Shown here one piece after another: positions 4,143 to 51,339 of a stretch of 64,000 nucleotides of DNA (positions within the stretch are counted from its first letter, which is position 1; each line of letters begins with the position of its first letter). This DNA comes from a virus (Duplodnaviria > Heunggongvirae > Uroviricota > Caudoviricetes). Location of the stretch: the IMG/VR virus record IMGVR_UViG_3300032579_000006; one strand, given 5' to 3'. Made by a program: the position numbers and the translations under genes. The notes under the pieces were generated by a model. That model saw only the letters and a list, made by a program, of their open reading frames with translations, had not been told where the DNA came from and searched no databases.

Positions 4143-5535
4143 CATAGACGTACAGACGCTCTTTCTACGTATGATGGTAACCAACGCCGAGTTATATACT
4201 CGCGTCATAAACATCATGAATCCAAATAATTTTGATAGGACGCTGAGAGCATCCGCAGAATTCTTGGTAGAACACGCTACCAAATATAATGTTATGCCGG
4301 ATCCTATTCAGATCAAGGCTACGACTGGTGTTAGCATAGAACCTATACCAGAGCTTACTGATGGACACTATGATTGGTTTCTAGAAGAATTCGAATCATT
4401 CACTAAGAGACAAGAGCTTGAGCGAGCCATTCTTAAAGCAGCGGATATGCTAGAGAAGGGCGACTTTAATCCAATTGAAAAATTAATAAAAGATGCTATT
4501 CAGATTTCATTGCAACGAGATATGGGTACAGACTACTTTGCTGATCCAAAAGAGCGACTAAACAAATACTTCAATGCAGGTGGTCAAGTAAGCACAGGTT
4601 GGCCACAGCTTGATCGTGTCATGTATGGTGGCATGAGTCGAGGAGAGTTGAACATCTTTGCAGGTGGTTCGGGCTCGGGTAAATCATTGGTGATGATGAA
4701 TCTGGCTCTAAACTGGCTACAGCAAGGGTTAAGCGGAGTATACATAACGCTAGAACTATCAGAAGAATTGACTTCGCTACGTACTGATGCCATGTTGACT
4801 AGCATGAGTACAAAAGATATTCGAAAGGATATGGATACTGCTGAGCTAAAAGTCAAGATGGTTGCTAGAAAGTCTGGTAAGTATCGTGTTAAGGGTCTTC
4901 CGGCACAGTCTAACGTAAATGATATTCGAAGCTATCTAAAAGAAGTTCAGATTCAGACTGGCATCAAAGTAGATTTTGTGATGATCGATTATCTCGATCT
5001 AGTCATGCCAGTCTCCGTAAAAGTAAATCCTAATGATCAGTTTATCAAGGACAAGTATGTTTCAGAAGAACTACGTAATCTAGCTAAGGAATTAGGTGTT
5101 CTGATGGTTACGGCATCGCAGTTGAATCGTTCGGCAGTTGAAGAAATTGAGTTCGATCACTCACACATTGCTGGTGGTATTTCAAAGATCAACACAGCAG
5201 ACTATGTGTTTGGTATTTTCACTTCCAGGTCAATGCGTGAACGCGGAAAGTATCAAATTCAGTGTATGAAGTCTCGTAGTTCCACTGGAGTGGGTCAAAA
5301 GATCGACTTAGAATATAACATCGAAACCATGAGAATAACCGACGAAGATCCAGAAAATGATTACAAACCACAACCGTCTGCTAATGACATTATCAGTAAA
5401 ATAAAAACAACTAGCCAAGTTGGCTCAGTAGACGCAGCGGTACATGCAACTGTAGAAGCAGCACCAAAGCACGTAGTTGCAGATGTCAAATCTGCACAAT
5501 TAAAATCGTTGTTAAATTCTCTCAAGAAATCATAA
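4126..5535 (+). CDS. DnaB-family replicative helicase (T4 gp41-like)
   Basis: Walker A AGGSGSGKS; RecA-like core; DnaB-like motifs ASQLNR and helicase C-terminal region. Confidence 0.75.
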   Translation: MTKEYNIDVQTLFLRMMVTNAELYTRVINIMNPNNFDRTLRASAEFLVEHATKYNVMPDPIQIKATTGVSIEPIPELTDGHYDWFLEEFESFTKRQELERAILKAADMLEKGDFNPIEKLIKDAIQISLQRDMGTDYFADPKERLNKYFNAGGQVSTGWPQLDRVMYGGMSRGELNIFAGGSGSGKSLVMMNLALNWLQQGLSGVYITLELSEELTSLRTDAMLTSMSTKDIRKDMDTAELKVKMVARKSGKYRVKGLPAQSNVNDIRSYLKEVQIQTGIKVDFVMIDYLDLVMPVSVKVNPNDQFIKDKYVSEELRNLAKELGVLMVTASQLNRSAVEEIEFDHSHIAGGISKINTADYVFGIFTSRSMRERGKYQIQCMKSRSSTGVGQKIDLEYNIETMRITDEDPENDYKPQPSANDIISKIKTTSQVGSVDAAVHATVEAAPKHVVADVKSAQLKSLLNSLKKS

Positions 5536-21762: not shown

Positions 21763-21813
21763 GAGCTGCGGTATGCGTTTCCTGATAAATACTATCAACA
21801 GGAAACGCACATG
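21761..21813 (+). promoter_or_regulatory. translational coupling device: SD + 13-codon uORF (MRFLINTINRKRT) + 11-bp hairpin occluding the RBS of the downstream gene
   Basis: AGGAG at 21761, ATG at 21773. Stem TGCGTTTCCTG (21774-21784) pairs with CAGGAAACGCA (21799-21809). The uORF stop TGA overlaps the ATG at 21811 (ATGA). Confidence 0.5.
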
Positions 21814-30272: not shown

Positions 30273-30292
30273 TTTACAGCATAAATACTAAT

Positions 30293-35298: not shown

Positions 35299-35337
35299 GG
35301 ATAGGGAGTTTATAATCTAAAACGATAAATACATATC

Positions 35338-35922
35338 ATGAATGACCCGTTATCCTTTTACGTATATGCATATCTTCGCAGCGACGGGACGCCTTATTAC
35401 GTCGGTAAAGGTAAGGGCGACCGAGCATGGAACCATAGTAGGTCTGATACCGTACATCCACCGCAGGATAAGCGAAAAATTATAATTTTGGAATCCGGGT
35501 TGACCAACTTGGGTGCTTTGACACTTGAACGAAGAATGATTCGTTGGTATGGGCGCATTGATTTGGGCACAGGTATACTTAGGAACCAAACTGATGATGG
35601 TGGTGATGGTGCATCTGGTGTCAAACAATCACAAGAAACGATAGCAAAACGAGTAGCCTCTTCCAAGGGAAAGGCTATGGGAATGACAGGAAAAAAACAC
35701 ACGGTTAAATCTAATGAACAACGTAGACTGTCGATGTTAGGTAAAAATACAACTCCTCATACTACGGAACGCAGATTGGCTAATTCTAGGTCAAAGCTTG
35801 GTATGAGATACAAATCACAATATATCCTTAATTGTCCACATTGCAATACTTCCGGAGGAAGTTCAAACATGAAGCGATATCACATGGATAATTGCAAACA
35901 CCTACAAAAGGTAATAGTATGA
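35338..35922 (+). CDS. GIY-YIG homing endonuclease
   Basis: [27 protein letters not shown] matches the GIY-(x10)-YIG core. ATAAATA lies at 35325-35331, 6 nt before the ATG. Confidence 0.7.
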
Positions 35923-38900
35923 GTCAACAGAACATAGATTTTGGTACTTTTCCAGACGATCCAAATGCGGATGCAATTCGTATTGCATTTCAAAAAACCC
36001 AGAATAACTTTAGTCAACTGTTTGACACGCTACAATCTCAATCAGTTTTATCTGTAAATAAATCTCAGGGCGCTGGAATTACTGTCAACTCTCCTACAGG
36101 AAATGTGGTAGTATCAGCTAATATTGCCTGTGTTCAGGTAACCAGCACTACATTAGCCGTCGGTATCAACGGGTCAAATAACTCCGGTAAATCAGGAGGC
36201 CTTGCAACAGTAACTAAATCTACAGACATTCTTCTAGTAGATTTACCATATGATGTTGCTAACATTAATAATATTACTGCTGCACAAACTATCACGGCAA
36301 ACGACATTGTAGCTAACAATTCCTTCACATCTACTTCATTTTCTGCTACTGGTAATGTGTCTGCAGGAAATCTATTTTCTACTGGTAACATCTATGCTAA
36401 TTCAGGCAATGCGAATGTATCAAATGTTAATGCGGGAAATGGTTACTTTACAGCGAACCTATCAGTAATTTCTAATGTTTCTGCTGGCAATGTTTATGCA
36501 AACTCAGGTACAGTGGGCGCAGCTACTGGTAATTTTTCTGGAAATGTTAATGCAGCTAATGCTAATTTAGGTAATACCGTAACTGCAAATTTCTTTAGCG
36601 GAAATGGATACTATCTTACTGGTGTAATTACTGCACCCGGACCTAAAATTGTTAATGGTGCTAGCTATACCAATATCGCTACTTCAGGTGGAAACGTAGT
36701 TACAGCGGTAAATGGCAACACAACATTTACGGTTACGTCGACCGGAGCTAATATATCTGGTACCTTAGGTGTTACTGGAAATATTACTGCCGGTAATCTC
36801 GACGGCGCCAATAGTGTTTTCGCTAATTATTTAACCGGAACATTAACTACTGCTGCACAACCGAACATCACATCAGTTGGTACTCTCTCTAGCTTAAGTG
36901 TTAATGGAACTGTTACGGCTCCCAACTTCACTGCTAATACAGGGGTGTTTACAGGTAATGGTAGCGGTCTATCATCTATTGCCGGCGCCAATGTAACCGG
37001 TGCAGTCGCATATGCTACAACTGCTAACTCGGTAGCCGGAGCCAACGTTTCAGGTACAGTAGGTAGCGCAACCAATGCAGCCGCAGTTCTTAGTAACTCA
37101 GCCTCAACTGGTACTTATTATATTCCATTCATATCATCAATCGCAAATGGTAACTATACACACGCATCAAATGCTAATTTCAGCGCAAATCTATCCAATG
37201 GCTATATCACAGCAACTGGTTTTGTAGGCACACTTAGTGGCTCTGCTACATCTGCAACTACAGCAGGTACAGTGACAACTAATGCACAACCAAACATCAC
37301 ATCAGTTGGTACTCTCTCTAGCTTAAGTGTTAATGGAACTGTTACGGCTCCCAACTTCACTGCTAATACAGGAGTGTTCACGGGTAACGCTAATGGATTG
37401 ACTGGAATTCCTGGAGCCAATGTCACAGGTGCAGTCGCATATGCTACCACTGCTAACTCAGTAGCAGGAGCTAATGTGTCTGGTGCAGTCGCATATGCTA
37501 CCACTGCTAACGCAGTAGCAGGGGCGAATGTTTCAGGTACAGTTTCTTCGGCTACGTCTGCAACTAATGCGTCCGCAGTATTAAACAACGTACAAACAAC
37601 TGGTACTTATTACCCAGCATTCATATCATCTACTGCTAACGGCAATTATGCGCACGCATCTAATAGTGCATTTAGTGCTAATTTTGCAAATGGTGCACTT
37701 TCTGCTACTACTTTCGTAGGTACATTAAGTGGTGCGGCCACTACAGCAGGCACAGTAACAACAAATGCACAACCAAATATTACATCGGTTGGCACTTTAA
37801 CAGGGCTAAATGTTAACGGTACAATAACTGCGCCTAACATCACTGCAAACACTGGTGTATTTACCGGTAATGGTAGTGGTCTGTCAGCTATTGCTGGCGC
37901 TAATGTTACTGGTACGGTTTCGAGCGCATCGACTGCAACTACTGCAACTACTGCGGGTACAGTAACGACGAATGCACAACCAAATATCACTTCAGTTGGT
38001 ACTTTAGCTAACTTAACAGTAGGAAACGCATCGGCCAATACTCAATTTGGAAATGGAACAATTAACGCCGCTGGTAATGTTCAAGCTGCAAACTTGATTG
38101 GTCCTCTCGCATCTGGTAATTCTAACGTTACTATCACTGCCAACAGCAACGTCAACATTTATGTTGCAGGTAATGCTACATCTCAATTAACAGTGACCTC
38201 AACTGGTGCAAACATCGCAGGTTATGCAACGGTTGCCGGTAATTTAACTTCAGCTAATGCAAACTTAGGAAACTTAGCAAAAGCTAATTACTTCCAAGGA
38301 GACGGCGGACTGTTAAGTAACATTACCGTTTCAGGGGGAACTTCTATTGTTAACGGTAATAGTAATATTGCTGTAGGTGCCAATAGCAACATTACGATGA
38401 GTGTTGCTGGTGTTTCCAATGTAATGGTAATTACCAGTACTGGAGCAAACATTACCGGAACATTAACAGTAGGAAACGTATCTGCAGGAAACATTACCGG
38501 TAATGTCACTACTGCTGCTCAAGGAAATATTACCTCATTAGGTACTCTTACAGGGTTAACTGTTGCTGGTCCCGTAAACTTAGGACCAGCAAGCAATCTA
38601 ACATTATCCGGTGGATCAGCTAATCAGCTACTTGTCTCTAACGGCGCCGGCGGCGCAGCATGGCAAACTGTAACTAGCTTAACCCTTGCTCCGGGCTCTA
38701 ATACACAAGTATTGTTTAACGATTCGGGTAGCTTTGCTGCAAACAGCGGTCTCACCTTTAACAAAACAACTGGAGCACTTACTGTTACTGGAAATGCTAA
38801 TACCGGTAATATTGGTGCAAACAATGCAGTGTTCACGTCTGTTACAGGTACGTTAACTACTAACGCACAACCAAACATTACTTCAGTTGGTTCGTTGACC

Positions 38901-40454
38901 TCGCTGATTGTAACTGGTAACATCAATTCTGGTAATATATCTGGTGGTAATTTAGTAAGTGCCAATTATTTCAGCGGTAACGGTAATGCACTGTCTAGTA
39001 TTCAAGGTGCAAATGTAACTGGTACAGTAGGTAGCGCGACCAATGCGGCCGCAGTTCTTAGCAATTCAGCATCAACTGGTACTTATTATATTCCATTCAT
39101 ATCATCAATCGCAAATGGTAACTATACACATGCATCAAATGCCAATTTCTATGCTAATTTGGCTAATGGATACATTACAGCAACCGGATTCGTAGGCACA
39201 CTGAGTGGCGCCGCAACATCTGCAACTACCGCAGGCACAGTAACGACGAATGCACAACCAAACATCACATCAGTTGGTTCGTTGACCTCACTGATTGTAA
39301 ACGGTAATATCAATTCTGGTAATATATCTGGTGGTAATTTAGTAAGCGCTAATTACTTTACTGGTTCTCATGCTAATGGTAACTCAAACATAAACATTCC
39401 ATCAGCTGATGGTAACATAAACTTTAGTAGTGCAGGTAATGCGAATGTTGTTGTAGTAACCGGGACAGGTGTCAATGTTTCTGGCACATTAAACGCAACC
39501 GGCTACGCGAACGTTGGTAACTTAGGTACCGCACAAGTACTTGCAACTGCAAACGTAACTGCTCCGCAATTAATCTCAAACATAGCAACAGGTACTGCAC
39601 CGTTCGCTGTATCAAGCACAACACAAGTTGCTAACTTGAACTCGCAATATGCAGGTACAGCTAACTCAGTAGCAGGTGCAAACGTAACCGGTGCAGTAGC
39701 GTATGCAACGACTGCTAACTCAGTAGCAGGTGCTAACGTAAGTGGTGAAGTTGGTCTTGCTACATACGCAACAACAGCAAACGCGGTAGCAGGTGCTAAC
39801 GTATCAGGTACTGTTGCTAACGCAAATAATTCTGCATATTTAGGTGGTACTGCGGCAGCAAGTTATCTATTAACAAACGGTACTGGTAGTGGTTTAACTG
39901 CAATTACTGGTGCAAACGTAACCGGCGCAGTTTCACAAGCAACAACTGTGATGGGTAACACTCAGAACAATATTAATACACTTGGTGCATTAACTACATT
40001 AAGTACAGGTGCAAACACTACATCAGGTACTATCACTGGTAACTGGTCATTAAGTGCAGGTTCAAAATTAGCCGCAACTTATTCTGACTTGGCAGAAAAA
40101 TATGTTAGTGATGCAGAATATGCTCCGGGTACAGTATTAGTATTTGGTGGTGAATATGAAGTGACATTAGCTAATACATTTGATAGTACACGTGTAGCAG
40201 GTGTAGTAACAACTGCCCCGGCTTACACTATGAATAGCGAATGTCAAGGTGAACATGTTGTTAACATTGCGCTACAAGGTCGTGTACCATGTTTAGTAAT
40301 GGGTCCGGTAAGTAAGGGTGACTTAATGGTTGCAGGTACAAATGGTCGTGCAGTTGCTAATAATGAAGCACGTGCAGGTACTATTATCGGTAAGTCATTA
40401 GAAAACTTTACAGGTACTGAAGGTATTATTGAAGTTGCTGTTGGTAGATTCTAA
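35919..40454 (+). CDS. long tail fibre with modular internal repeats and C-terminal intramolecular chaperone domain
   Basis: [14 protein letters not shown] modules repeated about 6 times. Internal perfect DNA repeats (36891-36960 = 37311-37380). The C-terminal 150 aa are homologous to the 11642-13741 fibre chaperone domain. The ORF track start is 35892. Confidence 0.75.
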
Positions 40455-40505
40455 AAAGGTCACATTGTATTTTATTAAACATTTATTAAAAATGATAAGT
40501 ACAAT

Positions 40506-40775
40506 GTGATTAATGTTTTTCAATTAGAATACGAAACAAGACTAAAGAGTTGGTACGAACTCAGGCAATCCCTCGAAAACAAAGATATTGCCACTAAGTG
40601 TTTAGAAATAGACAAATGGTGGCAGTACGCACCTTTGGTTAATTATTATCTTCATCCAGATGATATTGATAATTGGCCCGGTCCGTGGGAATTACTGAAT
40701 GATAACAATTATTGCCAAATTGCCAGGGGTTTGGGTATGCAATTTGCGTTCTCGTTTCGGTGTATAATACAATAA
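40506..40775 (+). CDS. small protein, paralog 1 of a tandem pair
   Basis: GTG start. Shares W-x-ELR...DK...W-x-APxxxxYLHPDDIxxWPxPWELLN with the next ORF. Confidence 0.4.
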   Translation: MINVFQLEYETRLKSWYELRQSLENKDIATKCLEIDKWWQYAPLVNYYLHPDDIDNWPGPWELLNDNNYCQIARGLGMQFAFSFRCIIQ

Positions 40776-41219
40776 ATGAACATATTTTTACAGGATTACT
40801 ATTTACGCCTCAAGGCGTGGCATGAACTTAGAGAAATCCTTAAGGACAAAGATTTGCAAACAATCTGCGTCGAGGTTGATAAGTTTTGGCAATGGGCACC
40901 TATTAGTGCCCATTATCTTCATCCAGATGACATAGAAGACTGGCCTAATCCATGGGAACTACTCAACGTGAATACTTACTGTCTATATGGTCGTGCATTG
41001 GGCATGATTTATACTCTTGTGTTATTGGGCGTACAAGACATTGACTTTGTTGAAGGAATAAGTGATAATGACAAAGATGTCATATTAGTTCTGGTTGATA
41101 ACGCAAAATATGTTATGAATGGTGGTATAGATACAGTGTTAAATACTGATCTTGCGTCGTTCGACATAAAGAAACATATCAACATAGATCCATTGACACA
41201 GAAGATAGGCAAGCAATGA
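40776..41219 (+). CDS. small protein, paralog 2 of a tandem pair
   Basis: TATAATA, then 6 nt, then ATG, with no SD. Confidence 0.45.
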   Translation: MNIFLQDYYLRLKAWHELREILKDKDLQTICVEVDKFWQWAPISAHYLHPDDIEDWPNPWELLNVNTYCLYGRALGMIYTLVLLGVQDIDFVEGISDNDKDVILVLVDNAKYVMNGGIDTVLNTDLASFDIKKHINIDPLTQKIGKQ

Positions 41220-42871
41220 CAATTAATGTAACAAAAAGATCAGGAATAATCGAACCCCTACAACTAGAAAAGTGGCAGTCGCAAATCGCTAAAATTTGTA
41301 GCGGCATCGCTGACATTAGCCAATCGATGATTGAAATCAAAGCTTCTCCTCATTTTTTTGATGGCATTACTACTAGAGAAATTGACGAGCTAACCCTGCG
41401 CGCAATAGTAGACCTAATTGATATTGAATCTAATCCGGACGTTGGTCATACCAATTACCAATTTGTGGCAGGTAAGCAAAGACTGTCTATGTTGCGCAAA
41501 GACGTATATGGACAATTTCAGCCGCCGCATCTTTATGAGATAGTAAAGAAGAACGTAGAAGTAGGGCTGTATACATCTGAACTGCTTGATTGGTATACGG
41601 AAGACGATTGGAATAAAATGAATGAAATGCTTGACCATGAAAAGGATGAGCAATATTCATATGCGGCGATTGAACAATTAGTAGAAAAGTATCTAGTTCG
41701 CAACAGAGCAACTAAAGAAATCTACGAAACTCCACAAGTTAGATACATGATCGCCGCCGCGACGGTTTTTCACAGCGAAGAACCTAATACAGCCAGAATG
41801 CGATATATTAAGGAATATTATAATGCTGCGAGTGATGGGCTTTTTACTCTTGCTACTCCTGTGCTTGCTGGCCTTGGCACTCCTACTAAACAATTTAGTA
41901 GCTGCGTTCTTATTCGTAGCGACGATGATCTAGATAGCATCTTTGCTTCCGGAGAGATGATGGCAAAGTATGCGAGCAAGCGTGCTGGTATTGGACTAGA
42001 GATAGGAAGATTGCGTTCATTAGGTTCGCCAATTCGCGGCGGAGAAATCATGCATACCGGTATGATTCCTTTTCTAAAGAAATGGTTCGGAGACCTCCGT
42101 TCGTGTTCTCAGGGAGGAATCAGAAACGCATCCGCCACTGTCTTTTATCCTATCTGGCATCACCAATTCGATGACCTAATTGTATTAAAGAATAATCAGG
42201 GAACCGAAGAAACCCGTGTTCGTCATATGGATTATGGCGTTGTTCTCAGTGCATTCTTCTGGCGCCGATTCAAGAATAAGGAAAACATCACCTTCTTTGA
42301 TCCAAATGAAGTTCCAGATTTATATGAAGCGTTCTATAAGAACACAGCAAAGTTTGAAGAACTTTATGTAAAGTACGAGAAACGTAAAGACCTTCGTAAG
42401 AAGACAATGAGTGCTGAAGAAGTGTTTAAGGGAGGCATACTAAAGGAACGCACAGACACTGGCCGCATCTATTTGGTCTTTATCGACAATGTTATGAAGC
42501 AAGGCCCGTTCGATCCTGAGTACCATACTATATATCAATCTAACCTTTGCTGTGTAACCGGTGAAACACAAGTAACTTTCTTGCACGAAAACGGCAACAC
42601 AGAACAAATGTCTGTTTCTAGTGCTGTGGAAAGATTTGAATTAGGTAATTTAACTACTTCAAAGATTAAAAGTTTTAAGAATGGTGAAGTTTCCTGGGAA
42701 AATATTTCTGCGGCAATTAAAACTAAAACAGTCACCGAACTGTATGAAATTGAAGATGAAAACGGTAATGTATTGAGATGCACAGGAGACCATCGTGTTT
42801 TTACTAAGAATAGAGGTTATGTAAGAGCCGATGAATTAGTTGAAACTGACGAGTTATGTGTTGAAATTTGA
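41216..42871 (+). CDS. nrdA: ribonucleotide reductase class I alpha subunit, N-terminal extein fused to an N-terminal split-intein half
   Basis: ATP cone (VTKRSGIIEPLQLEKW). The catalytic-site approach ends ...YQSNL(C) and is followed by intein block A (CVTGETQV) and block B (TGDHRVFT), then a stop. The tail RCTGDHRVFTKNRGYVRADELVETDELCVEI is nearly identical to the published NrdJ-1 N-intein tail. Confidence 0.85.
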   Translation: MTINVTKRSGIIEPLQLEKWQSQIAKICSGIADISQSMIEIKASPHFFDGITTREIDELTLRAIVDLIDIESNPDVGHTNYQFVAGKQRLSMLRKDVYGQFQPPHLYEIVKKNVEVGLYTSELLDWYTEDDWNKMNEMLDHEKDEQYSYAAIEQLVEKYLVRNRATKEIYETPQVRYMIAAATVFHSEEPNTARMRYIKEYYNAASDGLFTLATPVLAGLGTPTKQFSSCVLIRSDDDLDSIFASGEMMAKYASKRAGIGLEIGRLRSLGSPIRGGEIMHTGMIPFLKKWFGDLRSCSQGGIRNASATVFYPIWHHQFDDLIVLKNNQGTEETRVRHMDYGVVLSAFFWRRFKNKENITFFDPNEVPDLYEAFYKNTAKFEELYVKYEKRKDLRKKTMSAEEVFKGGILKERTDTGRIYLVFIDNVMKQGPFDPEYHTIYQSNLCCVTGETQVTFLHENGNTEQMSVSSAVERFELGNLTTSKIKSFKNGEVSWENISAAIKTKTVTELYEIEDENGNVLRCTGDHRVFTKNRGYVRADELVETDELCVEI

Positions 42872-42904
42872 TTCCCGAACATAAATACATATGGAGAAAT
42901 TCAT

Positions 42905-43840
42905 ATGTATAAAGAACTTTATAAGACTATAATTGACAACGCAAGAAAAGAAAACAGAATGAGAAATCAAGGAACATATTATGAACGACACCATATCGTT
43001 CCTGATTTCTTGTACAAGAACAGAAAGAGAACAGGACCAAACGGGCATCTAGACGGTAATCCAGATAGCGCGGAGAATTTAATTCTATTGACTTTTTCCG
43101 AACACTTAATGGCTCATTACTACTTGTATGAGATTTATAAAGGAACTCGTTATGAATACTCTGCTGGTTCTGCCCTGCAATTCTTTTTTGTAAAAGCGAC
43201 AGGCAACCACAAACGACAAATTAATTTGTCAGATGTTGATGAAAAGTTTCTTAAAGAAATGGAACACTTAAGACTACTAGGCAATGAATGTATTAGTAAG
43301 GCAAGAAAAGGAAAGATGCCTGTTGTCGATGCTGTGACTAGAGAAAAAATAGGATCAGTCTCCGTAGATCACCCTAAAGTTTTATCAGGGGAATGGGTTC
43401 ATCATAGTAAAGGCGTTCCTGGAAAGTCTGCAAGAGATATGTCTGGTTCTAAAAATACTAACTTTAAGGAATTAACTCAGGATCGAAGAGAAAGAATGTG
43501 GAAATGTGTGTCTGAATCTTGTCAAGAGGGTTACTTGAAGTTACACTTATTGCAGGATAATATGAAAAAAGAATTTGTAGAGTTTAAGAAAATTTCATTG
43601 GCGTGGATAGGCAAAAAGTTTGGATCTTTAGAAAATCTAATAAACGAAACGAATAAGAACTTGAATCTAAACATCAAATATAATCCATATCATAGAAGCG
43701 CAGAGCAACGACGGGTTGCAGCAGAACACTCAAAAAAACATCGATGGTACAACAACGGCGTACAAAATGTAAGAGTCACAGACGAAGAAGAATTTTGTAA
43801 ACATAATCCAAATTATGTATTAGGAAGAATAAAAATATGA
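42905..43840 (+). CDS. free-standing HNH homing endonuclease lying between the two intein halves
   Basis: YYERHHIVP...NLILLTFSEHLMAH HNH core. Paralog of the 44982 gene. The start lies in a CATATG...CATATG hairpin. Confidence 0.75.
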   Translation: MYKELYKTIIDNARKENRMRNQGTYYERHHIVPDFLYKNRKRTGPNGHLDGNPDSAENLILLTFSEHLMAHYYLYEIYKGTRYEYSAGSALQFFFVKATGNHKRQINLSDVDEKFLKEMEHLRLLGNECISKARKGKMPVVDAVTREKIGSVSVDHPKVLSGEWVHHSKGVPGKSARDMSGSKNTNFKELTQDRRERMWKCVSESCQEGYLKLHLLQDNMKKEFVEFKKISLAWIGKKFGSLENLINETNKNLNLNIKYNPYHRSAEQRRVAAEHSKKHRWYNNGVQNVRVTDEEEFCKHNPNYVLGRIKI

Positions 43841-44925
43841 TTAAAATTAAAAAAATTAAAGTAGAACCAACCGATGTATATGACTTATCTGTGCCTGAAA
43901 CAGAATGTTTCTTTGCTAATAACATATTAGTTCATAACTGCGAGATCCTACTACCTACAAAGTCATTCAAGAGACTAGATGATGAGGCCGGCCGAATTGC
44001 GCTGTGTACCTTAGGGAGTATTAATTGGGGTGCGTTCCGTAACCCAGAAGATATGCGCCGAGCATGTCGTATTCTACTAAGAAGTCTGAATAACATTTTG
44101 GATTATCAAGACTTCCTTTCTATTCAGTCTAAGTTATCGAATGACGAGATTCGTCCAATCGGTATCGGTGTAACTAATCTCGCATACTGGCACGCTAAGC
44201 GCGGATATAAGTACGGAGACTCAGATGCACTACAGGACGTAAAGAGTTGGGCAGAACACCAGACTTACTACCTCATGGAAGCAAATGTAGAATTGGCAAA
44301 AGAGCGTGGAAAGTGCATTGACTCTGACAAGACCCGCTATGGTCAAGGAATCTTTCCCTGGGAACTTAGAGCCAATGGTGTAAACGAGCTAGCAGACTTT
44401 AATCCTGAGCTTGATTGGGAATCACTACGATTTGAAATGAAAGAGTATGGTGTGCGAAACAGCACAGTTGGTGCCATTGCTCCGGTTGAATCTTCATCTG
44501 TTGCCATTAATTCAACTAATGGTATTGCACTACCAATGAGTTTGATTTCTGTTAAGGAATCAAAAGCGGGATCCTTCGTGCAAGTTGTCCCAGAATATCA
44601 TAATATTAAGGTCAGAAAGAATTATCAGTTGATGTGGGATCAGGTTGATTGCGTCGAGTATCTTAAGACCTCTGCTGTTCTTGCTGCATACATGGATCAA
44701 TCAATTTCAACTGATACGTTCTATAATCCAGCACATTTCCCTGATCGCAAGATACCAACTACGCTAATTGCTAAAAATTTGATGCTAGCACATAAGTTCG
44801 GTCTCAAGACGCTTTATTATAGCCTCGTGTGTAAACAAGGTTCTAAAGAAGAAGCCGACGATGCACCTCTTATGCCTATAGACTTTTTTGAAGATGAAGA
44901 TTCCTGCGAGAGTTGTAAGTTATAG
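43837..44925 (+). CDS. nrdA: C-terminal split-intein half fused to the ribonucleotide reductase alpha C-terminal extein
   Basis: MIKIKKIKVEPTDVYDLSVPETECFFANNILVHN|CEILLPT: intein blocks F/G with terminal HN and +1 Cys. Splicing would restore the SNLCEILLP thiyl-radical site. Confidence 0.85.
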   Translation: MIKIKKIKVEPTDVYDLSVPETECFFANNILVHNCEILLPTKSFKRLDDEAGRIALCTLGSINWGAFRNPEDMRRACRILLRSLNNILDYQDFLSIQSKLSNDEIRPIGIGVTNLAYWHAKRGYKYGDSDALQDVKSWAEHQTYYLMEANVELAKERGKCIDSDKTRYGQGIFPWELRANGVNELADFNPELDWESLRFEMKEYGVRNSTVGAIAPVESSSVAINSTNGIALPMSLISVKESKAGSFVQVVPEYHNIKVRKNYQLMWDQVDCVEYLKTSAVLAAYMDQSISTDTFYNPAHFPDRKIPTTLIAKNLMLAHKFGLKTLYYSLVCKQGSKEEADDAPLMPIDFFEDEDSCESCKL

Positions 44926-44981
44926 CATGTAAACTATAAGTTTTCTGTAAACTATGATAAATAAGTTTACAGGAGATTTAC

Positions 44982-45650
44982 ATGAACTATGAAAAAATAT
45001 ACAATACATTAGTAAGTAGAGGACAGAGTAGAATACTAGAAGGATATAGCGAGAAGCATCATATTGTTCCTAAATGTCTTGGTGGAACCGATGACGCATC
45101 TAACTTAGTATCATTGACTCCTGAAGAACATTATTTGTGTCATCTGTTATTAGTTAAACTGTATCCTAACAATATACGACTGGTAAAGGCCGCTATGTTT
45201 ATGCTATCATCAAATAGTGAACAACAGAGAAACAACAAGTCATATGGCTGGTTAAAGAGACAATATTCCGAATATATGCGCGGTCCTAATAACCCGGCAA
45301 AACTAAACGGACCATGGAACAAGGGTATGACAGGCTATAAAAATAAAGTCAACTTTTCGGACGACACATTAAAATCAATGTCTACCCGAATGACGGGTGA
45401 AAAAAATCCATGTTCTGGTGTTAAGCCCTGGAATCATCCAAGAGCAACAGATTATTCTAAATCTGTTTGGAAACAAGCAGAAACGATTTACAATGTTTGG
45501 GTAGAAAACAATAAACCCTCGTACTGTAAGTTATATACATTAGTGAACGATAAGAGTTATATTAATGAAAGCAAAGTTATAGGACCGTATATGAATATGG
45601 TAAAATATTTTAGAAGTGGTTGGATTCCAACACAAGATACCGAGTTGTAA
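44982..45650 (+). CDS. HNH homing endonuclease
   Basis: EKHHIVPKCLGGTDDASNLVSLTPEEHYLCH. The SD lies partly inside a 9-bp hairpin (CTGTAAACT / AGTTTACAG). Confidence 0.7.
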   Translation: MNYEKIYNTLVSRGQSRILEGYSEKHHIVPKCLGGTDDASNLVSLTPEEHYLCHLLLVKLYPNNIRLVKAAMFMLSSNSEQQRNNKSYGWLKRQYSEYMRGPNNPAKLNGPWNKGMTGYKNKVNFSDDTLKSMSTRMTGEKNPCSGVKPWNHPRATDYSKSVWKQAETIYNVWVENNKPSYCKLYTLVNDKSYINESKVIGPYMNMVKYFRSGWIPTQDTEL

Positions 45651-45903
45651 AGGAAAGCAGATTAAATACACCTACAGCGAAAGCATTGCTCCGTACGTAA
45701 AGAAGACTACTAAAGGTATTAATAAAACAGAAGAGCATAAAAAGAATCAAAGCAAAGCAATGAGCGGCCGTAGTGGGACAAAAGAGTGGTGCGAACAACA
45801 TAGCGAAGCAATGAAGAAGTATCACGCAAAGATGAAAGACAAACTTTAGGAACGGTTGGGTTCCTATAGAAGATTTAGAATGGAAAGAACTAAAGGAAAA
45901 AAA

Positions 45904-46488
45904 ATGAAATTTAAAAATATCGTAGCAACAGCATTAGTATTATTCGCCGTCGGCGCCGGCGCAGTTTTAGCTGAGCCACTGCATGTCTGTAAAAATATTG
46001 ACTATGCTCTATGTGCCGCAAGTCCAACTACGCCAACAGGTAAAACCATGAAGGTCAATGGCAAAACATTCAAAGAAGGCATGGCAGCATGTCCAATACT
46101 TCACGGTGATGCTGCGGCCAACCTAAACCTGATGAATGGGTCATGTGATGCTCCTGGTCCAGGTAAAATTTGGAGTTTGTTTGGCATTCCAGCCCAGACC
46201 AGTTATCCACAACAACCCACTTGGGCGGTGGCACCTGCACAATTTAGAAGCTTCATTATTGGCACAACGCCTACAACCGGTATGAGCAATATGTGGAGTT
46301 TTCCATGCGAGATCCAAGCACAAAAAGTCAATGGAGTAAAGTTGGCTTCGTGTTATGGACCTATCATGGAAAGTCCTTGGACTAACGATCATGTTAAACC
46401 TGGCCAGATTGGATTTACCCAGGCCGCAGAAGGTGTGACATATCCGGTTGGTGGTAATGCTCCGGCTAACATTGGATCTAAAAAATAA
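45904..46488 (+). CDS. secreted Cys-rich protein (signal peptide)
   Basis: MKFKNIVATALVLFAVGAGAVLA signal peptide, then 8 Cys. The start was chosen at the ATG with an AAGGA SD; the ORF track lists 45856. Confidence 0.5.
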   Translation: MKFKNIVATALVLFAVGAGAVLAEPLHVCKNIDYALCAASPTTPTGKTMKVNGKTFKEGMAACPILHGDAAANLNLMNGSCDAPGPGKIWSLFGIPAQTSYPQQPTWAVAPAQFRSFIIGTTPTTGMSNMWSFPCEIQAQKVNGVKLASCYGPIMESPWTNDHVKPGQIGFTQAAEGVTYPVGGNAPANIGSKK

Positions 46489-46489
46489 T

Positions 46490-47590
46490 ATGAGTAAAGC
46501 GCAATACAATCTCAATACCAAGACAGACTACCTGCATCGCAAGATGTTCCTGGATCCAGCAGGTCCCGTAACCATCCAACGATTTGAGGAAGTAAAATAT
46601 AATAAGCTAGCAAAAATAGAGCAAACTGCCCGCGGCTTCTTTTGGATTTCAGAAGAAATCAGTTTGACTAAAGATGCCAATGACATGAAAGATGCTAGCG
46701 AGACAGTAGCACATATGTTTACTAGTAACCTATTGAGACAGACAGCCTTAGATAGTATACAAGGCCGAGCACCTGCGCAGGTGTTTACGCCAGCATGTTC
46801 TATTCCGGAACTAGAAGCAATCATGTCCAATTGGTCCTTTTTTGAAACAAATATTCATTCTCGGGCGTATTCACACATTATTCGTAACATCTATAACGTC
46901 CCTAAGGAAGTTTTCAACACCGTTCACGATACTAGAGAAATCATCGATATGGCTGCAAGTGTAGGTGAATACTATGATCGTTTACATCTATTAAATTGTA
47001 AGAAAGAATGCGGTATTGATGTTTCTGAGGAAGAACACATTAATGCTATTTGGCTAGCGCTACATGCATCTTATGCACTTGAGGCTTTTCGATTTATGGT
47101 TTCATTTGCTACGTCACTTGCGATGGTAGAAAACAAAATCTTTATGGGTAATGGCAACATCATCAGTCTTATTTTACAAGATGAGTTACTGCACAAAGAG
47201 TGGACTGCCTGGATGATTAACCAAGTGATCAAAGAAGATCCTCGATTTTTGCGAGCAAAAAATGAATGCGAAGCAGAAGTCCGTAAGATTTATGAAGATG
47301 TTATACGTGAAGAAAAGGAATGGGCCGGATATCTGTTCAAGAAGGGCCCGGTTATAGGTCTTAACGAACGAATCATGATAGATTTTGTGGATTACAATGC
47401 TGTAGATGCATTGAAGCAGATTGGTATTAAGTATTGGAATCCGGCTCCAAAGTCCACTCCTATTCCATGGTTCAACAAACACATGGATACTAGTAAGAAA
47501 CAAACGGCGCTGCAAGAGTCAGAAAGTACTAATTACGTAGTCGGAATCATGTCACATGACCTAAATTACGATGAACTACCCAATATTTAA
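46490..47590 (+). CDS. nrdB: ribonucleotide reductase class I beta subunit
   Basis: NIHSRAYSHIIRNIY (radical and iron-site region) and a ferritin-like diiron pattern. The ORF track start is 46448. Confidence 0.85.
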   Translation: MSKAQYNLNTKTDYLHRKMFLDPAGPVTIQRFEEVKYNKLAKIEQTARGFFWISEEISLTKDANDMKDASETVAHMFTSNLLRQTALDSIQGRAPAQVFTPACSIPELEAIMSNWSFFETNIHSRAYSHIIRNIYNVPKEVFNTVHDTREIIDMAASVGEYYDRLHLLNCKKECGIDVSEEEHINAIWLALHASYALEAFRFMVSFATSLAMVENKIFMGNGNIISLILQDELLHKEWTAWMINQVIKEDPRFLRAKNECEAEVRKIYEDVIREEKEWAGYLFKKGPVIGLNERIMIDFVDYNAVDALKQIGIKYWNPAPKSTPIPWFNKHMDTSKKQTALQESESTNYVVGIMSHDLNYDELPNI

Positions 47591-47599
47591 GGAGAAGAA

Positions 47600-47833
47600 A
47601 TGAAGGCATTAATTTGGTCAAAGGAAAATTGCACCTACTGTGTGCAAGCAAAGGCTCTATTGGATTCTAAGGGAATCGAATATGAAGAACGTAAGATCGG
47701 GTCAGGATACGCAATAGAAGATTTGCTTGAGGCAATTCCAAACGCTCGCACTGTTCCGCAAATCTTTTTAGACGGAGCGTATGTCGGCGGCTTCCGCGAG
47801 CTACAAGCTAAGTTTTTAGCGGAGTCAGTGTAA
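47600..47833 (+). CDS. glutaredoxin (NrdH/Grx-like)
   Basis: WSKENCTYCVQAK with a CxxC active site and ...TVPQIFLDG. Confidence 0.75.
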   Translation: MKALIWSKENCTYCVQAKALLDSKGIEYEERKIGSGYAIEDLLEAIPNARTVPQIFLDGAYVGGFRELQAKFLAESV

Positions 47834-47834
47834 T

Positions 47835-48134
47835 ATGAAGTTTGAAGAAAACGAAGTGTACTCGTTCAAGATGCACAGCGGCGAAGAAATGATCGCAACG
47901 TATTTGGGTATGGACGGTGATGAATTGATCATTCACAATCCGGTATCAGTCGCACCTGGTCCGCAAGGTATGGGACTCATTCAATCCATGTTTACTTCAG
48001 ATACGAAGTCTGATCCTAGACTAAATAATAGCAGCTACTCACTAGTATGCAAGACTGATGCCACTATTACTGAAAAGTATGTGGAAGCAACGACTGGTCT
48101 AGTAGTACCTAAAAAGAAGTTTATCACGGGCTAA
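47835..48134 (+). CDS. hypothetical protein
   Basis: 99-aa ORF. Confidence 0.4.
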   Translation: MKFEENEVYSFKMHSGEEMIATYLGMDGDELIIHNPVSVAPGPQGMGLIQSMFTSDTKSDPRLNNSSYSLVCKTDATITEKYVEATTGLVVPKKKFITG

Positions 48135-48403
48135 TGGCAAAGCTATCCAGAAAAAACGATACGACGGAAGCTAATGGTAAGATAGTTCGCGGGGCCAGTA
48201 CCGTGTTTGCGAACGGAATTGCTGTTGGTTTGCATGTCAGCGACATCACTCCTCACCCTGGCGGAGGTAAGCATAATGCCTCTAAGACTACTGAAGGTAG
48301 TCCTAGCGTATTTGCTGATGGTGTCGCGGTCCTTCGTGTAGGTTCTGGGACTACATGTGGTCACAAAGTCAATCAGGGTAGTCCTGACGTGTTTGTGCCT
48401 TAG
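48134..48403 (+). CDS. PAAR-repeat spike-tip protein (T4 gp5.4-like)
   Basis: VFANGIAVGLHVSD...VFADGVAVLRVGSGTTCGH...SPDVFV repeats characteristic of PAAR. Confidence 0.65.
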   Translation: MAKLSRKNDTTEANGKIVRGASTVFANGIAVGLHVSDITPHPGGGKHNASKTTEGSPSVFADGVAVLRVGSGTTCGHKVNQGSPDVFVP

Positions 48404-48411
48404 GATAAAAA

Positions 48412-51339
48412 ATGGCTGATTCAGGAAAACAAAGTCCCTTAGGTGTTAATGTACTGGGATCGCTGCTAGCTAACGCCGGCTTCGTCATCAATCCAGTAGC
48501 ACAATCTTATATGGGAATCAGTAGGACTAATGCCGGATACGCATTTGGTAGTATACTGAATAATACAGTACTGCATCTACTCACGTGGGCAATAAATGAC
48601 GGATATGTTCGCGGTTGGTTTCCGGGAACAACGTTAACTACGACAACATATAACAATCTTATATCTATTGGTGCTGACACTATTCCTGCTCTAGGCAACT
48701 CGATGCCACCTACATATACTGTAACGGATCCTGCTGGTGTGTGGACTAATGCTGCACAAGCATACGGTTTACAGACCACAGGAAGTGCAGTTCTTCCTGG
48801 CCCTGCTACATCTGGTTATGGTAACTATAGTAATTCAATAGGAGATCCGCTTGAGGGGTATGGTGTTGTAGATCAACAACAAAATGCAACATGGTACCCT
48901 TATAATACAACTAATCCTAACAATTCGATCACGCAATGGGGATATATTAGACTTCATGCATTGCAGGCATGGAATGAATTTAACTGTAATGGTACTACTG
49001 TAAACACAACTACTCCGGAATATAAAGAATTTTGTGCATCATTTTCTAGTGCAGTTTCAGCAGCCGGTACTTCAAATCAAACGATCAGTACGGTTGTAAA
49101 CTCAAATACCTTCTTAGACGGAACATACAGCAACATGGATGACCTCATGAGTGCTGATATATCTGGTGTAAATCTTTCCACTAAGGATTTTGGTACTGAT
49201 CTAGAAAATTTAGGAAAGGCTATAGACCTAAAACAGATCGAGACGTTTGGTTTACCATCCAACCTACTCAGAACAATAGGTAAAAATTCAGCAGTCACGC
49301 AAGATTTGTCTTTGGCTCTTTTGGCTGCAGGATTAACCACTAAGGAAATATCTGACATTACGGGTGGAGTAACACCAAATGTATCTAAGGCACTAGAACA
49401 GAAAATCTATGGTGCATTTTTAATCATAACAGGTGAAAATTTAGCCCATGTTTTGGCACCTCTACAATGCGTGACACAAGGACTAAACTCCTTAGCGGAT
49501 CTACTAAATCTAAAGATGTTGTTCCCTATCAGCTATTCAGCATTAACTGTTCCAATCTATAATGCTATCGCAGGAACAACCAACAGCAAAACTTACTACC
49601 TCATTTATCAAAATGGCGGCGTCAATGATGCACTAGACACTCCTGCTCTACAAGAATATGTAGGAACAATCATTCCTAGTGGTAAGCCTCCTATTTTTGA
49701 TAAAGCATCTAATCCTGAAAATTATACGGAGCTTCCTAAAGGATTCGCCTCATACCTGCAGGACATTATTCCATACGATCAGGCATTAGCCGCAGGCGCA
49801 TTCTCATATACGATGAGACAAATTAGAAACATTCAAAATGTTGACATACAAAAATTCGCTAAAGTAGTTAAGGGTATTGAAAATACATCTAATCTAAATT
49901 TAGTCAATGGCACCAGTAAACCTACGGATCAGACGCAGATAGATTTTGCGACTAGTGTTCAGGCGCTAGGCAGCGGCCCTAGTGGATCGCTCACGCTTTC
50001 AGACTTTTTTGGATGCATGTCGGGCCTCCCTTACCCATGGCAACTCATAGAACAGCGAATTCAAGAAGCACAAACTGATAACTTGGCTGCAATATATCGC
50101 GGATTATTTTTAGCTGTTACATGGGATCCGGCTATAGTAACAGTTCAATATACTACATATACTGTTGGTCCTCCGGGCCCACTCACTACATACTATCATG
50201 TTACCGGAGTAACGCTCACTCATCCAGGTGGTGGATATATTCGCGGTGATGCACCTGTGCCTACAATAACACTGTCTAACGGCGGAACCGCAGTAGCCAC
50301 TGTCGAAACCGGTGAGTTTGCACAGTCAGTAGATCACGTTAATACAGGGTACGGGAGAGTAACATCAGTAACACTAACATCATCCGGTCCGGACTCCACG
50401 TCTATTCCTACCGTAACAATCGAATGCCCACCTACTAGTACATCGGGTGGAACTAATACACCAGCCGGAACAACTGGTTGGCCGAATCCAATGAATGCGG
50501 TAGTTCAGGGATATATCGATCAGGCTAATGCGGAAATAGCTTCTATCTTAGTAAACAAACCAGATGCTGCACAACACCTGAATGCGTACTGGAACATTTT
50601 AGGAACCCAACTAGCAAGAGAACAGCGAACTCGATACACTTATGCACCTCCTGTATCGGTCCCTAAAGACTTTTTCTTAAACGCATATCCTAGCACACAA
50701 TCGTCCTTTGTAGATTCGCTACCTCAGATGGCACTAGACACTCGCCCTCATATGGCAGCACAGACATTAGAAGCAATTTCGGACTTGTCTACGGTCGGTG
50801 GTCAAAGCCTAGTAGCGCTACTGCGCCAAGAAAGAAATCAAGCCCGCTTGCAGCAAGTTGGTATTGATTTGGATAATAGTATTGCAGATGTTCTTCCAAA
50901 TCAAATTGCGCTCACTACAAACGGAACAACATCGAATGCAGTTAATGGTATTCCAAGTTGCGGTACTGAATATACGTTCCCTGCATGGCCTTCTAATATA
51001 GACGACACTGGTAATACCATAACGCCTAAACCTGCAGGGATTTATACGTCTTCAGAAGGGTTTCAACAGATTTCAGGATCAGCACCCGGCGATATTACTC
51101 AGATTCTAAATTGTAATCCAAATCCGGTTGCCGGCACTGTCGTTCCTGCTGGCCCAGTCGTTACTCCGCCGAGCAGCGAAATAGTCATCATCGCTCCGGC
51201 GCCCGCATATGACCCTAATAATTTGCCACCGAATTTAGATCCAAATTACACTAGTACTACGTTGCTTCCGGCCACTCCTTCTATACCCGATGCAATTGCG
51301 CAGGTTACTGCTTGTAACTGTGATTGTTGGGTCAAATAA
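48412..51339 (+). CDS. large structural protein (baseplate hub/spike or adhesin candidate)
   Basis: 975 aa, Thr/Asn/Gly-rich, directly follows the PAAR gene. C-terminal CNCDCWVK. Confidence 0.45.
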   Translation: MADSGKQSPLGVNVLGSLLANAGFVINPVAQSYMGISRTNAGYAFGSILNNTVLHLLTWAINDGYVRGWFPGTTLTTTTYNNLISIGADTIPALGNSMPPTYTVTDPAGVWTNAAQAYGLQTTGSAVLPGPATSGYGNYSNSIGDPLEGYGVVDQQQNATWYPYNTTNPNNSITQWGYIRLHALQAWNEFNCNGTTVNTTTPEYKEFCASFSSAVSAAGTSNQTISTVVNSNTFLDGTYSNMDDLMSADISGVNLSTKDFGTDLENLGKAIDLKQIETFGLPSNLLRTIGKNSAVTQDLSLALLAAGLTTKEISDITGGVTPNVSKALEQKIYGAFLIITGENLAHVLAPLQCVTQGLNSLADLLNLKMLFPISYSALTVPIYNAIAGTTNSKTYYLIYQNGGVNDALDTPALQEYVGTIIPSGKPPIFDKASNPENYTELPKGFASYLQDIIPYDQALAAGAFSYTMRQIRNIQNVDIQKFAKVVKGIENTSNLNLVNGTSKPTDQTQIDFATSVQALGSGPSGSLTLSDFFGCMSGLPYPWQLIEQRIQEAQTDNLAAIYRGLFLAVTWDPAIVTVQYTTYTVGPPGPLTTYYHVTGVTLTHPGGGYIRGDAPVPTITLSNGGTAVATVETGEFAQSVDHVNTGYGRVTSVTLTSSGPDSTSIPTVTIECPPTSTSGGTNTPAGTTGWPNPMNAVVQGYIDQANAEIASILVNKPDAAQHLNAYWNILGTQLAREQRTRYTYAPPVSVPKDFFLNAYPSTQSSFVDSLPQMALDTRPHMAAQTLEAISDLSTVGGQSLVALLRQERNQARLQQVGIDLDNSIADVLPNQIALTTNGTTSNAVNGIPSCGTEYTFPAWPSNIDDTGNTITPKPAGIYTSSEGFQQISGSAPGDITQILNCNPNPVAGTVVPAGPVVTPPSSEIVIIAPAPAYDPNNLPPNLDPNYTSTTLLPATPSIPDAIAQVTACNCDCWVK

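Follow-up and report, generated by a model that had tools for sequence, protein, structure and literature searches.

The subject of this report is a ribonucleotide reductase (RNR) locus in a 64,000-nt stretch of DNA, hereafter the window, from a Caudoviricetes virus (IMG/VR record IMGVR_UViG_3300032579_000006), where nrdA, the gene for the alpha subunit, is divided between two open reading frames (ORFs) with a third ORF lying between them. We consider it highly probable that this locus represents a fractured class Ia nrdA, in which a mini-intein at SNLC/C (the slash marks the splice junction) was invaded by a Mob-like HNH cassette and the complete NrdA is restored by trans-splicing. The three ORFs read from the sequence, 41216-42871, 42905-43840 and 43837-44925, are those that a sequence-only reading of the window had named. 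The first (551 aa, 63.3 kDa) combines the N-terminal part of NrdA with an N-intein (IntN), and the third (362 aa, 41.2 kDa), which starts with MIKIKK...FFANNILVHN/CEILLPT, combines a C-intein (IntC) with the C-terminal part of NrdA.

The class 1a NrdA profile NF006578 (761 positions) runs colinearly over both halves: residues 2-447 of the N-half align with profile positions 4-441 (518 bits) and residues 35-361 of the C-half with positions 440-760 (288 bits), the junction lying at position 439/440. Each half alone scores below the cut-off of 813 bits, and the sum of both halves is 806. Pfam assigns Ribonuc_red_lgN and the first half of the Ribonuc_red_lgC barrel to the N-half, and barrel positions 213-522 (the second half) to the C-half; the intein is situated at the centre of the NrdA barrel. 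Of the active-site residues, C225 (FSSCVLI), N437 and the thiyl-radical C439 have their equivalents in the N-half, while E441, C462 (IALCTLGS), the YY pair (LYYSL) and the C-terminal CxxC (SCESCKL) have theirs in the C-half. The sequence-only reading had described a class I nrdA with an ATP cone, accompanied by nrdB and glutaredoxin genes. The class and both accompanying genes were recovered, but the Pfam match to the ATP cone (22.7 bits) is under its cut-off of 25.8; the class Ia profile aligns from position 4, and close relatives have PF03477 matches.

Intein blocks are located on separate ORFs, as had been proposed, and both are over their cut-offs: TIGR01445 (intein N-terminal region) covers N-half residues 446-530 with 29.2 bits versus 24.5, and TIGR01443 (intein C-terminus) covers C-half residues 13-35 with 25.6 bits versus 15.6. 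Pfam PF14890 reaches 34.2 and 27.6 bits on the separate halves, just under its cut-off of 35.8, which is to be expected of half-domains. A search of the N-half against 5.8 billion proteins gave 79 intein-bearing clusters (75-100% identity), in which Cys1 (Cys446 of the N-half) and T78 and H81 of block B (C-T-G-D-H) are invariant, and the terminal HN followed by Cys (ILVHN/C, C-half residues 33-35) occurs in every related C-half examined. Both intein halves and the homing endonuclease gene (HEG) between them are under purifying selection: the pairwise ratios of nonsynonymous to synonymous substitutions (dN/dS, Nei-Gojobori, window versus five same-class loci) are 0.04-0.11 for IntN, 0.05-0.10 for IntC and 0.05-0.09 for the HEG. 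The tail of IntN is strongly acidic (RADELVETDELCVEI) and the head of IntC is basic (MIKIKKIK), a charge pattern described for NrdA-2, NrdJ-1 and IMPDH-1 (PMC2677866). An AlphaFold2 (AF2) model of the fused IntN and IntC made without an alignment was unusable (pLDDT 32).

The closest solved intein structure is that of NrdJ-1 (8ubs/9omb, E 7e-19). The intein halves had been called nearly identical to this split intein, which proved to be an overstatement: the alignment gives 41% identity for IntN, 53% for IntC and 44% for both combined, and the IntN tail that had been quoted matches NrdJ-1 at 23 of 31 residues. Identity to the NrdA-2 intein is about 43%. Since the identity is 44% and the host gene is a class Ia NrdA rather than a class II NrdJ, the window intein is, as judged by sequence comparison, a homologue but not an allele of NrdJ-1.

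The junction reads ...YQSNLCCVTGETQV, where the N-extein ends with SNLC and the second Cys is residue 1 of the intein. The sequence-only reading had let the N-extein end with SNL and expected the junction SNLCEILLP, whereby one Cys was dropped. The ligated SNLC + CEILLPT is colinear, with no gap, with the intein-less 772-aa NrdA of Xanthomonas phage X1 (SNLCQEILLPT), while SNL + CEILLPT is one residue short of the invariant N-x-C-x-E active-site motif. Therefore, the -1 residue is the thiyl-radical Cys (E. coli C439) and the +1 nucleophile is position 440. The intein-less relatives are 41 NrdA proteins, 770-807 aa long and with 90-93% identity in the extein, 40 of which read SNLCCEILLPT, exactly as the predicted ligation product, and one SNLCVEILLPT. 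The predicted junction peptide after ligation is SNLCCEILLPTK, while the alternative parse would yield SNLCEILLPTK. The predicted spliced alpha subunit has 773 aa, is 60% identical to the X1 NrdA, and its computed mass is 88.6 kDa instead of the approximately 95 kDa suggested earlier. According to these alignments, the window intein sits where the NrdJ inteins do, behind the thiyl Cys, but its host gene is of class Ia. This downstream insertion point is chemically permissive because the residue after the catalytic Cys is natively Cys in this lineage.

The endonuclease cassette and its allelic series

The HEG matches phrog_655 ("homing endonuclease", E 5e-13) and also phrog_12434 ("HNH endonuclease"), and its N-terminal 78 residues align with the HNH ORF at 44982-45650 (BLASTP E 3e-8). 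In tblastn it shows 34% identity, across 84% of its length, to the "HNH homing endonuclease" of Yersinia phage TG1 (E 3e-34), and it is also related to MobE- or mob-like genes of T4-type phages. The family comprises 265 members at E <= 1e-3, the best 120 of which are all named "hypothetical protein" and have no Pfam match; a comparison with PDB sequences gave no match. Across 35 family members H29, H30, N58, H67 and H71 are invariant, and sub-threshold matches to AHH (HNH/EndoVII superfamily) are found at residues 20-71 in 24 of them. In the AF2 model (pLDDT 83), the residues of the predicted HH...N...H motif fall on a strand-strand-helix unit (strands 27-30 and 59-62, helix 64-78) with an unusually long inter-strand loop of 28 residues. 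The earlier proposal of a free-standing HNH gene with its own ribosome-binding site holds as to the site, GGAG being placed 8 nt 5' of the ATG, while the HNH assignment, made without a Pfam match, is its weaker part. We interpret the product as a Mob-like HNH homing endonuclease, for which cleavage and homing are putative functions.

The RNA hairpin at the start of the HEG has a folding energy of -11.2 kcal/mol (z = -2.6). Across 12 loci, 92% of cells are paired and both sides have changed in 5 of 11 pairs; none of 500 shuffles matches the percentage paired, the both-sided change count or the covariation score, and in two loci (L023 and L026) the inner stem positions are rewritten with the pairing retained. 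An ATAAATA box, invariant in 12 related loci, stands directly 5' of the hairpin. The window has 20 copies of this box on the + strand against 5 on the - strand, a strong bias, and most of them lie just 5' of ORFs, including tail genes and a second HNH gene; a scan for sigma-70 promoters and terminators revealed no enrichment versus shuffles. The combination of a hairpin with a T4-type late promoter 5' of the endonuclease has been described for fractured-gene endonucleases and for mobE of Aeromonas phage Aeh1 (PMC2677866). By analogy, translation of the HEG is probably blocked on read-through transcripts, where the conserved hairpin would sequester its ribosome-binding site and start codon, and its expression is probably late, from the cassette's own late-type ATAAATA promoter abutting the hairpin.

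The ATAAATA boxes of the + strand also include positions 5532, 8304, 9747, 21785, 28405, 30281, 31089, 31592, 32076, 35325, 44957, 52665 and 53576, beside the one at 42881. Those at 30281, 31089 and 31592 end exactly 6 nt before the A of the ATG of ORFs 30293, 31101 and 31604, and that at 35325 ends 7 nt before it; if the spacing is that of T4-like late promoters, these ORFs would be read from leaderless late mRNAs. The box at 21785 lies inside a perfect 10-bp hairpin (GCGTTTCCTG...CAGGAAACGC), the 3' arm of which holds the ribosome-binding site of ORF 21811.

In a related allele (L007, protein P0007), the same intein is present at the same site as a contiguous mini-intein, which differs only by the 995-bp cassette: twelve residues (MTETRLSKSRVN) stand there in place of the window's CVEI-stop, control region, HEG and MIKIK. 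In an empty allele (L011) the insertion point is found between AACCTTTGC and TGTGAAATC, and nrdA and nrdB abut. Since the DNA alignment with both alleles reveals a stretch with no counterpart in the mini-intein, the cassette is placed at 42857-43851. IntN owes its last four codons and its stop to the cassette, and IntC its first five codons, the ATG among them, with the control region and the HEG in between; as mapped against the mini-intein, the cassette lies within the intein and not at the intein insertion point. The GC content of the cassette is 32-37% versus 39-47% in the exteins.

Searching IMG/VR with the HEG as a query gave 17 loci. An IntC-nrdA-C half follows the HEG in all 17, and the upstream gene is nrdA-N + IntN in all 15 that are readable. 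These loci form two classes, the window type SNLC/C[VIL]xG[DE][TS]...HN/CEI and the classical type SNL/CLTGD...HN/C[AQ]E, the latter accounting for 9 of the 17 HEG loci and for 9 of the 79 related N-halves. Between the classes, IntN residues 1-70 are about 41% identical even where the exteins are 88% identical (L008), while IntN residues 71-106, the HEG and IntC are 78-85% identical. Two loci with the same extein divergence from the window (74%), L019 and L024, have HEGs that are 81% and 55% identical to it. In comparison with diverged loci, nucleotide identity is highest (82-94%) over the 3' end of IntN and the 5' half of the HEG, exceeding that of the host gene. These data are most simply read as horizontal movement of the cassette, together with short co-converted flanks, among diverged phages as well as between two inteins placed one residue apart. 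Because it would have moved between two different inteins, its target is suggested to lie in or beside the intein. During mixed infections, the HEG may cut the cassette-less alleles and spread by gene conversion.

Several relatives show further arrangements of the gene. In the locus L030 (2013-2535, ENA ERZ27247435), the space between the halves of a same-class split intein is filled not by the HEG but by two unrelated small ORFs of 58 and 119 aa; the split state persists without the HNH endonuclease. In L007 (6001-9606, JGI 3300082978, Ga0672872_0001853), nrdA is broken again between the C439 and C462 equivalents: ...DDEGEF is followed by a 42-aa tail, a 235-aa GIY-YIG-like ORF, and then MRIIKKECVRKVPK + ISLCTLGS. 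This second break has no recognisable intein catalytic residues and resembles the tail-assembled, mobE-split NrdA of Aeh1. Four N-halves (P0036, P0055, P0056 and P0067) possess, besides the split intein, an additional contiguous intein of approximately 150-190 aa at a second site (LRSC/CVTPDT...LTHN/SQGGIRNAS), and nrdA of this lineage therefore hosts inteins in at least three positions. In Klebsiella jumbo phage KP13-7 (L001, OP617745, 30877-36407), nrdA_1 and nrdA_2 are separated by five "hypothetical" ORFs, and the window N-half covers it in tblastn over 99% of the query in two pieces, the intein part included, which suggests a multiply interrupted nrdA with intein-related pieces.

Probable trans-splicing and its alternatives

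The interruption of nrdA would need no splicing if the break was an artefact of sequencing or assembly at 42869-42871, or if the gene was a decaying pseudogene of a dispensable nrdA. This explanation is conceivable a priori only; it has virtually no probability and is effectively refuted. The stop codon is real: 78 of the 79 clusters (from JGI, ENA, NCBI and Logan) end just after IntN, most of them at 549-560 aa (an additional upstream intein brings four of them to 701-743 aa, and one is truncated to 514 aa), and the exact N-half protein occurs on 17 contigs of independent JGI and Logan assemblies in the same three-gene layout. A systematic error across independent platforms is implausible, the cultured phage TG1 shares the layout, and the sequencing error that the sequence-only reading had named as its own refutation is thereby excluded. 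The dN/dS values of 0.11 or lower in both halves, the intein and the HEG argue against a pseudogene. The chance of a removal at the RNA level appears just as minute. In this case one contiguous, bifunctional intein-containing NrdA would be translated, owing to recoding or to a group I or II intron with the HNH ORF inside it, and HNH genes are indeed common in phage group I introns within nrd genes, e.g., I-TevIII in T4 nrdB. However, no intron family was matched in 40000-48500 even at E up to 1, the Rfam scan of this region for introns and other RNAs having given one chance-level match only. Moreover, the cassette borders lie inside the intein coding sequence and are marked by a clean stop, a clean ATG with the ATGA overlap and an own Shine-Dalgarno sequence, and IntN and IntC (106 + 34 aa) are separated at the canonical site, like the halves of NrdJ-1.

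A different parse of the same genes places the intein at the classical RNR site SNL/C, where it would begin with Cys-Cys and use the thiyl Cys as +1, similarly to the NrdA loci of Dassa et al. Although the classical-type loci described above are read in this manner, we hold it to be very improbable for the window: the product SNLCEI is one residue shorter than the intein-less alleles (SNLCCEI) and X1 (SNLCQEI), TIGR01445 begins at residue 446, and block A (C-V-T-G-E-T) fits the classical C-L-T-G-D-T only if the second Cys is residue 1. Somewhat less remote, but still improbable, is an assembly of the halves into an active RNR without splicing, in which the intein halves would serve as interaction domains only. 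There is a precedent in Aeh1, where nrdA is interrupted by a Mob-family HNH gene between C439 and C462 and the enzyme is functional as an (alpha-a/alpha-b)2 beta2 holoenzyme (PMC3045599), and the relative L007 has an intein-less break with short tails. However, docking alone would not need Cys1, T78, H81, the terminal HN and the +1 Cys, which are invariant or strongly constrained; judging by the structure of class I RNRs, an unspliced 140-aa intein at the thiyl-radical Cys would be expected to obstruct the active site; and the homologues NrdJ-1 and NrdA-2 splice. Covalent trans-splicing is far likelier than non-covalent assembly, since the splicing residues are conserved, dN/dS is low, the tails are charged and the active site is divided at the barrel centre. 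Most probably, NrdA is restored by protein trans-splicing.

We suppose that a mini-intein settled directly after the thiyl-radical Cys (SNLC/C), and that a free-standing Mob-like HNH cassette then entered this intein at the usual endonuclease loop, delivering an upstream stop, its own control region and a downstream start codon. Two products would result, NrdA(1-445)-IntN and IntC-NrdA(446-773), which the acidic IntN tail and the basic IntC head may join into the HINT fold. Class 1 trans-splicing would proceed by an N-S acyl shift at Cys1, trans-thioesterification onto the +1 Cys, cyclisation of IntC Asn34 and an S-N shift, leaving an 88.6-kDa NrdA with the native SNLCCEI loop, partnered with the NrdB and glutaredoxin encoded downstream. 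Of this scheme, the sequences show the anatomy, homology, conservation, selection, the allelic series and the covariation of the hairpin, while the chemistry and efficiency of splicing, the timing of expression, and the activity and target of the nuclease are what we infer.

Several points weigh against the proposed trans-splicing and its HNH cassette. Trans-splicing of the window intein is itself a prediction, and with the catalytic Cys as the -1 residue, the Cys triplet (-1, 1 and +1) could form disulfides that slow splicing. The HEG reaches no curated Pfam or NCBIfam threshold for HNH, and whole-chain fold searches with its AF2 model were uninformative, nothing having been found. A T4-like start 6 nt past the ATAAATA box would have the late mRNA begin at the Shine-Dalgarno sequence itself, and the promoter-hairpin logic is therefore an analogy. 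Finally, synonymous sites are saturated in the exteins, which makes the comparisons of relative age only semi-quantitative.

Genomic surroundings

Table 1. Features of the nrd region, with coordinates in the window.
Feature	Coordinates	Strand	Description
nrdA N-extein	41216..42550	+	445 aa, ends ...YQSNLC
N-intein (IntN)	42551..42871	+	106 aa, CVTGETQV...CTGDH...ELCVEI; then TGA stop 42869-42871
Endonuclease cassette	42857..43851	+	995 bp; no counterpart in contiguous mini-intein allele L007
ATAAATA box	42881..42887	+	T4-type late promoter-like (putative function), 24 nt 5' of HEG start codon
RNA hairpin	42885..42910	+	11 bp; pairs Shine-Dalgarno GGAG (42893-42896) and HEG start codon (42905-42907)
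Free-standing HEG	42905..43840	+	311 aa, pI 9.5, predicted Mob-like HNH (HH-N-H: H29, H30, N58, H67/H71)
C-intein (IntC)	43837..43938	+	34 aa, MIKIKKIKVEPTDVYDLSVPETECFFANNILVHN; ATG overlaps HEG stop TGA (ATGA)
nrdA C-extein	43939..44925	+	328 aa, CEILLPT...SCESCKL; +1 Cys (position 440)
Second free-standing HNH homing endonuclease gene	44982..45650	+	between nrdA and nrdB; outside the split gene
nrdB, class I small subunit	46457..47590	+	Pfam Ribonuc_red_sm E 1e-38
Glutaredoxin gene	47600..47833	+	Pfam Glutaredoxin E 1e-14

The phage context assumed earlier is borne out by tail sheath, tail tube and other virion genes encoded elsewhere in the window. The sheath and tube genes identify a myovirus, which is probably large since the identical N-half protein occurs on contigs of up to 314 kb, and it is probably a freshwater phage. 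No close sequenced relative is known among 50,697 phage records, where a megablast of the locus gave no matches; in tblastn the extein is closest to Xanthomonas phage X1 (64%).

The start of nrdB is uncertain, and 46457 was taken from the gene call on an identical JGI contig (L004). In comparison with the empty allele L011, approximately 1.5 kb (44926-46456) is inserted between nrdA and nrdB. This insert contains the second HNH gene, which matches phrog_655 (E 6e-57) and, below threshold, Pfam HNH (18.3 bits), has its own ATAAATA box 25 nt upstream and its own hairpin, is missing from L011, and sits where mobE does in T4. Another ORF of the insert (45856-46488) has a signal-peptide-like N-terminus and a higher GC content, with no family match. 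Just 5' of the nrd cluster, a 1520-aa ORF (35892-40454) consists of long repetitive units rich in Asn, Gly, Ser, Thr and Ala and probably encodes a fibre protein; in relatives, this position is taken by proteins of 1462-2034 aa, for which the Mtd_N, Collagen and Ig-like matches are faint or weak.

Comparison with known systems

Fractured genes were described by Dassa et al. in 2009 (PMC2677866), whose 26 loci came from metagenomes; seven of them were class I NrdA and two were NrdJ, and the endonucleases were of the GIY-YIG or Vsr-like types. According to that paper, inteins of NrdA are inserted immediately before the thiyl Cys, and those of NrdJ one residue later. In their gene-breaking model the cassette provides an upstream stop and a downstream start, just as the mapped cassette of the window does, and fracturing by HNH endonucleases was anticipated but not observed; we found no later description of an HNH endonuclease in this position in the literature searched. 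As in NrdA-1 to NrdA-7, a split intein interrupts a class I nrdA at the thiyl-radical loop, and its halves flank a free-standing endonuclease ORF; with the fractured genes in general the window shares the overlap of the HEG stop with the downstream start, the hairpin and late-promoter-like box 5' of the HEG, and the phage origin in freshwater or marine metagenomes. It differs from these NrdA loci in the insertion point, which is SNL/C (SNL/CNE) in them and one residue later, SNLC/C, in the window, and in the Mob-like HNH endonuclease, although the endonuclease family is not a defining requirement.

The class I host, which had been implied to be a novelty, is not new because of the seven NrdA loci of Dassa et al. 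and because NrdA-2 (class I, junction SNL/CNE) splices both in cis and in trans, orthogonally to NrdJ-1 (PMC7090010 and its supplement). IntC of NrdA-2 ends with FFANNILVHN, as in the window. NrdJ-1, from the GOS metagenome, is similar in its insertion after the thiyl Cys, its split site (105 + 40 aa versus 106 + 34 aa) and the shared TKNRGYVRADEL and FFANxILVHN motifs, but it resides in a class II NrdJ, has Ser (SEI) instead of Cys at +1, and shares its locus with another endonuclease family. In the case of the cyanobacterial DnaE split intein (Ssp/Npu), too, an essential replication enzyme is naturally trans-spliced from two polypeptides, the split site is canonical and the halves pair electrostatically, but they are encoded at distant loci of a cellular host and no endonuclease gene lies between them.

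The locus is a genuine and well-conserved fractured nrdA, very probably one that trans-splices, and what is new in it is modest: a cassette with a Mob-like HNH gene, an insertion register whose shift the native Cys-Cys makes possible, and an unusually complete allelic series. The general understanding of inteins and RNRs is unchanged by it. Nevertheless, it offers a natural split intein of the fast NrdJ-1/NrdA-2 family with Cys at both +1 and -1, and at least 78 natural N-half variants with two junction registers as a material for orthogonal trans-splicing tools and for mapping extein tolerance.

The same layout occurs in Yersinia phage vB_YenM_TG1 (KP202158 / NC_028820; L029, 137532-141179): nrdA-N + IntN (532 aa), an HNH HEG (316 aa) and IntC + nrdA-C (354 aa). 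The HEG is preceded by a 12-bp hairpin whose loop holds a TATAAATA box, and it overlaps the C-half, which starts GTG-VLKIEQ...ILVHN/CAEIAIPT. TG1 differs as a cultured T4-like coliphage relative with the classical SNL/C site and an intein that is approximately 37% identical. Its record annotates only two nrdA coding sequences and an HNH gene, leaving the split intein unannotated, and no published description of this locus as a split intein was found in the literature searched, which is no proof that none exists. Among 50,697 deposited phage genomes, tblastn with the TG1 HEG matched none but TG1 at E <= 1e-8 and gave no connection to Aeh1 mobE. Because TG1 is cultured and has the same layout, the system is open to experiment.

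The nrdA-a/mobE/nrdA-b locus of Aeromonas phage Aeh1 is similar to the window in that its class Ia nrdA is divided close to the active site by a Mob-family HNH gene, which overlaps the downstream half and is controlled by a hairpin and a late promoter. In contrast, Aeh1 has no intein, short charged tails join the halves non-covalently, and the break is between C439 and C462, not at C439. Its authors (Crona et al.) speculated that these tails are remnants of a split intein (PMC3045599). One can suggest, tentatively and with a probability well short of even, a joint reading in which the HNH cassette targets the intein and not nrdA, shuttles between the non-allelic SNL/C and SNLC/C inteins, the native Cys-Cys permits the downstream site, and every stage of the 2009 gene-breaking model is preserved (empty, mini-intein, split with HEG, split with a non-HEG insert, and the Aeh1-like tail-assembled break), the lineage being the intact precursor of the mobE-split RNR. 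It is more speculative still that the three adjacent Cys (-1, 1 and +1) could make splicing, and hence RNR activation, redox-gated. One phage lineage shows empty, mini-intein, split + HEG and HEG-replaced alleles together, and it links the metagenomic fractured genes to the RNR of Aeh1, for which an intact version of the speculated precursor exists.

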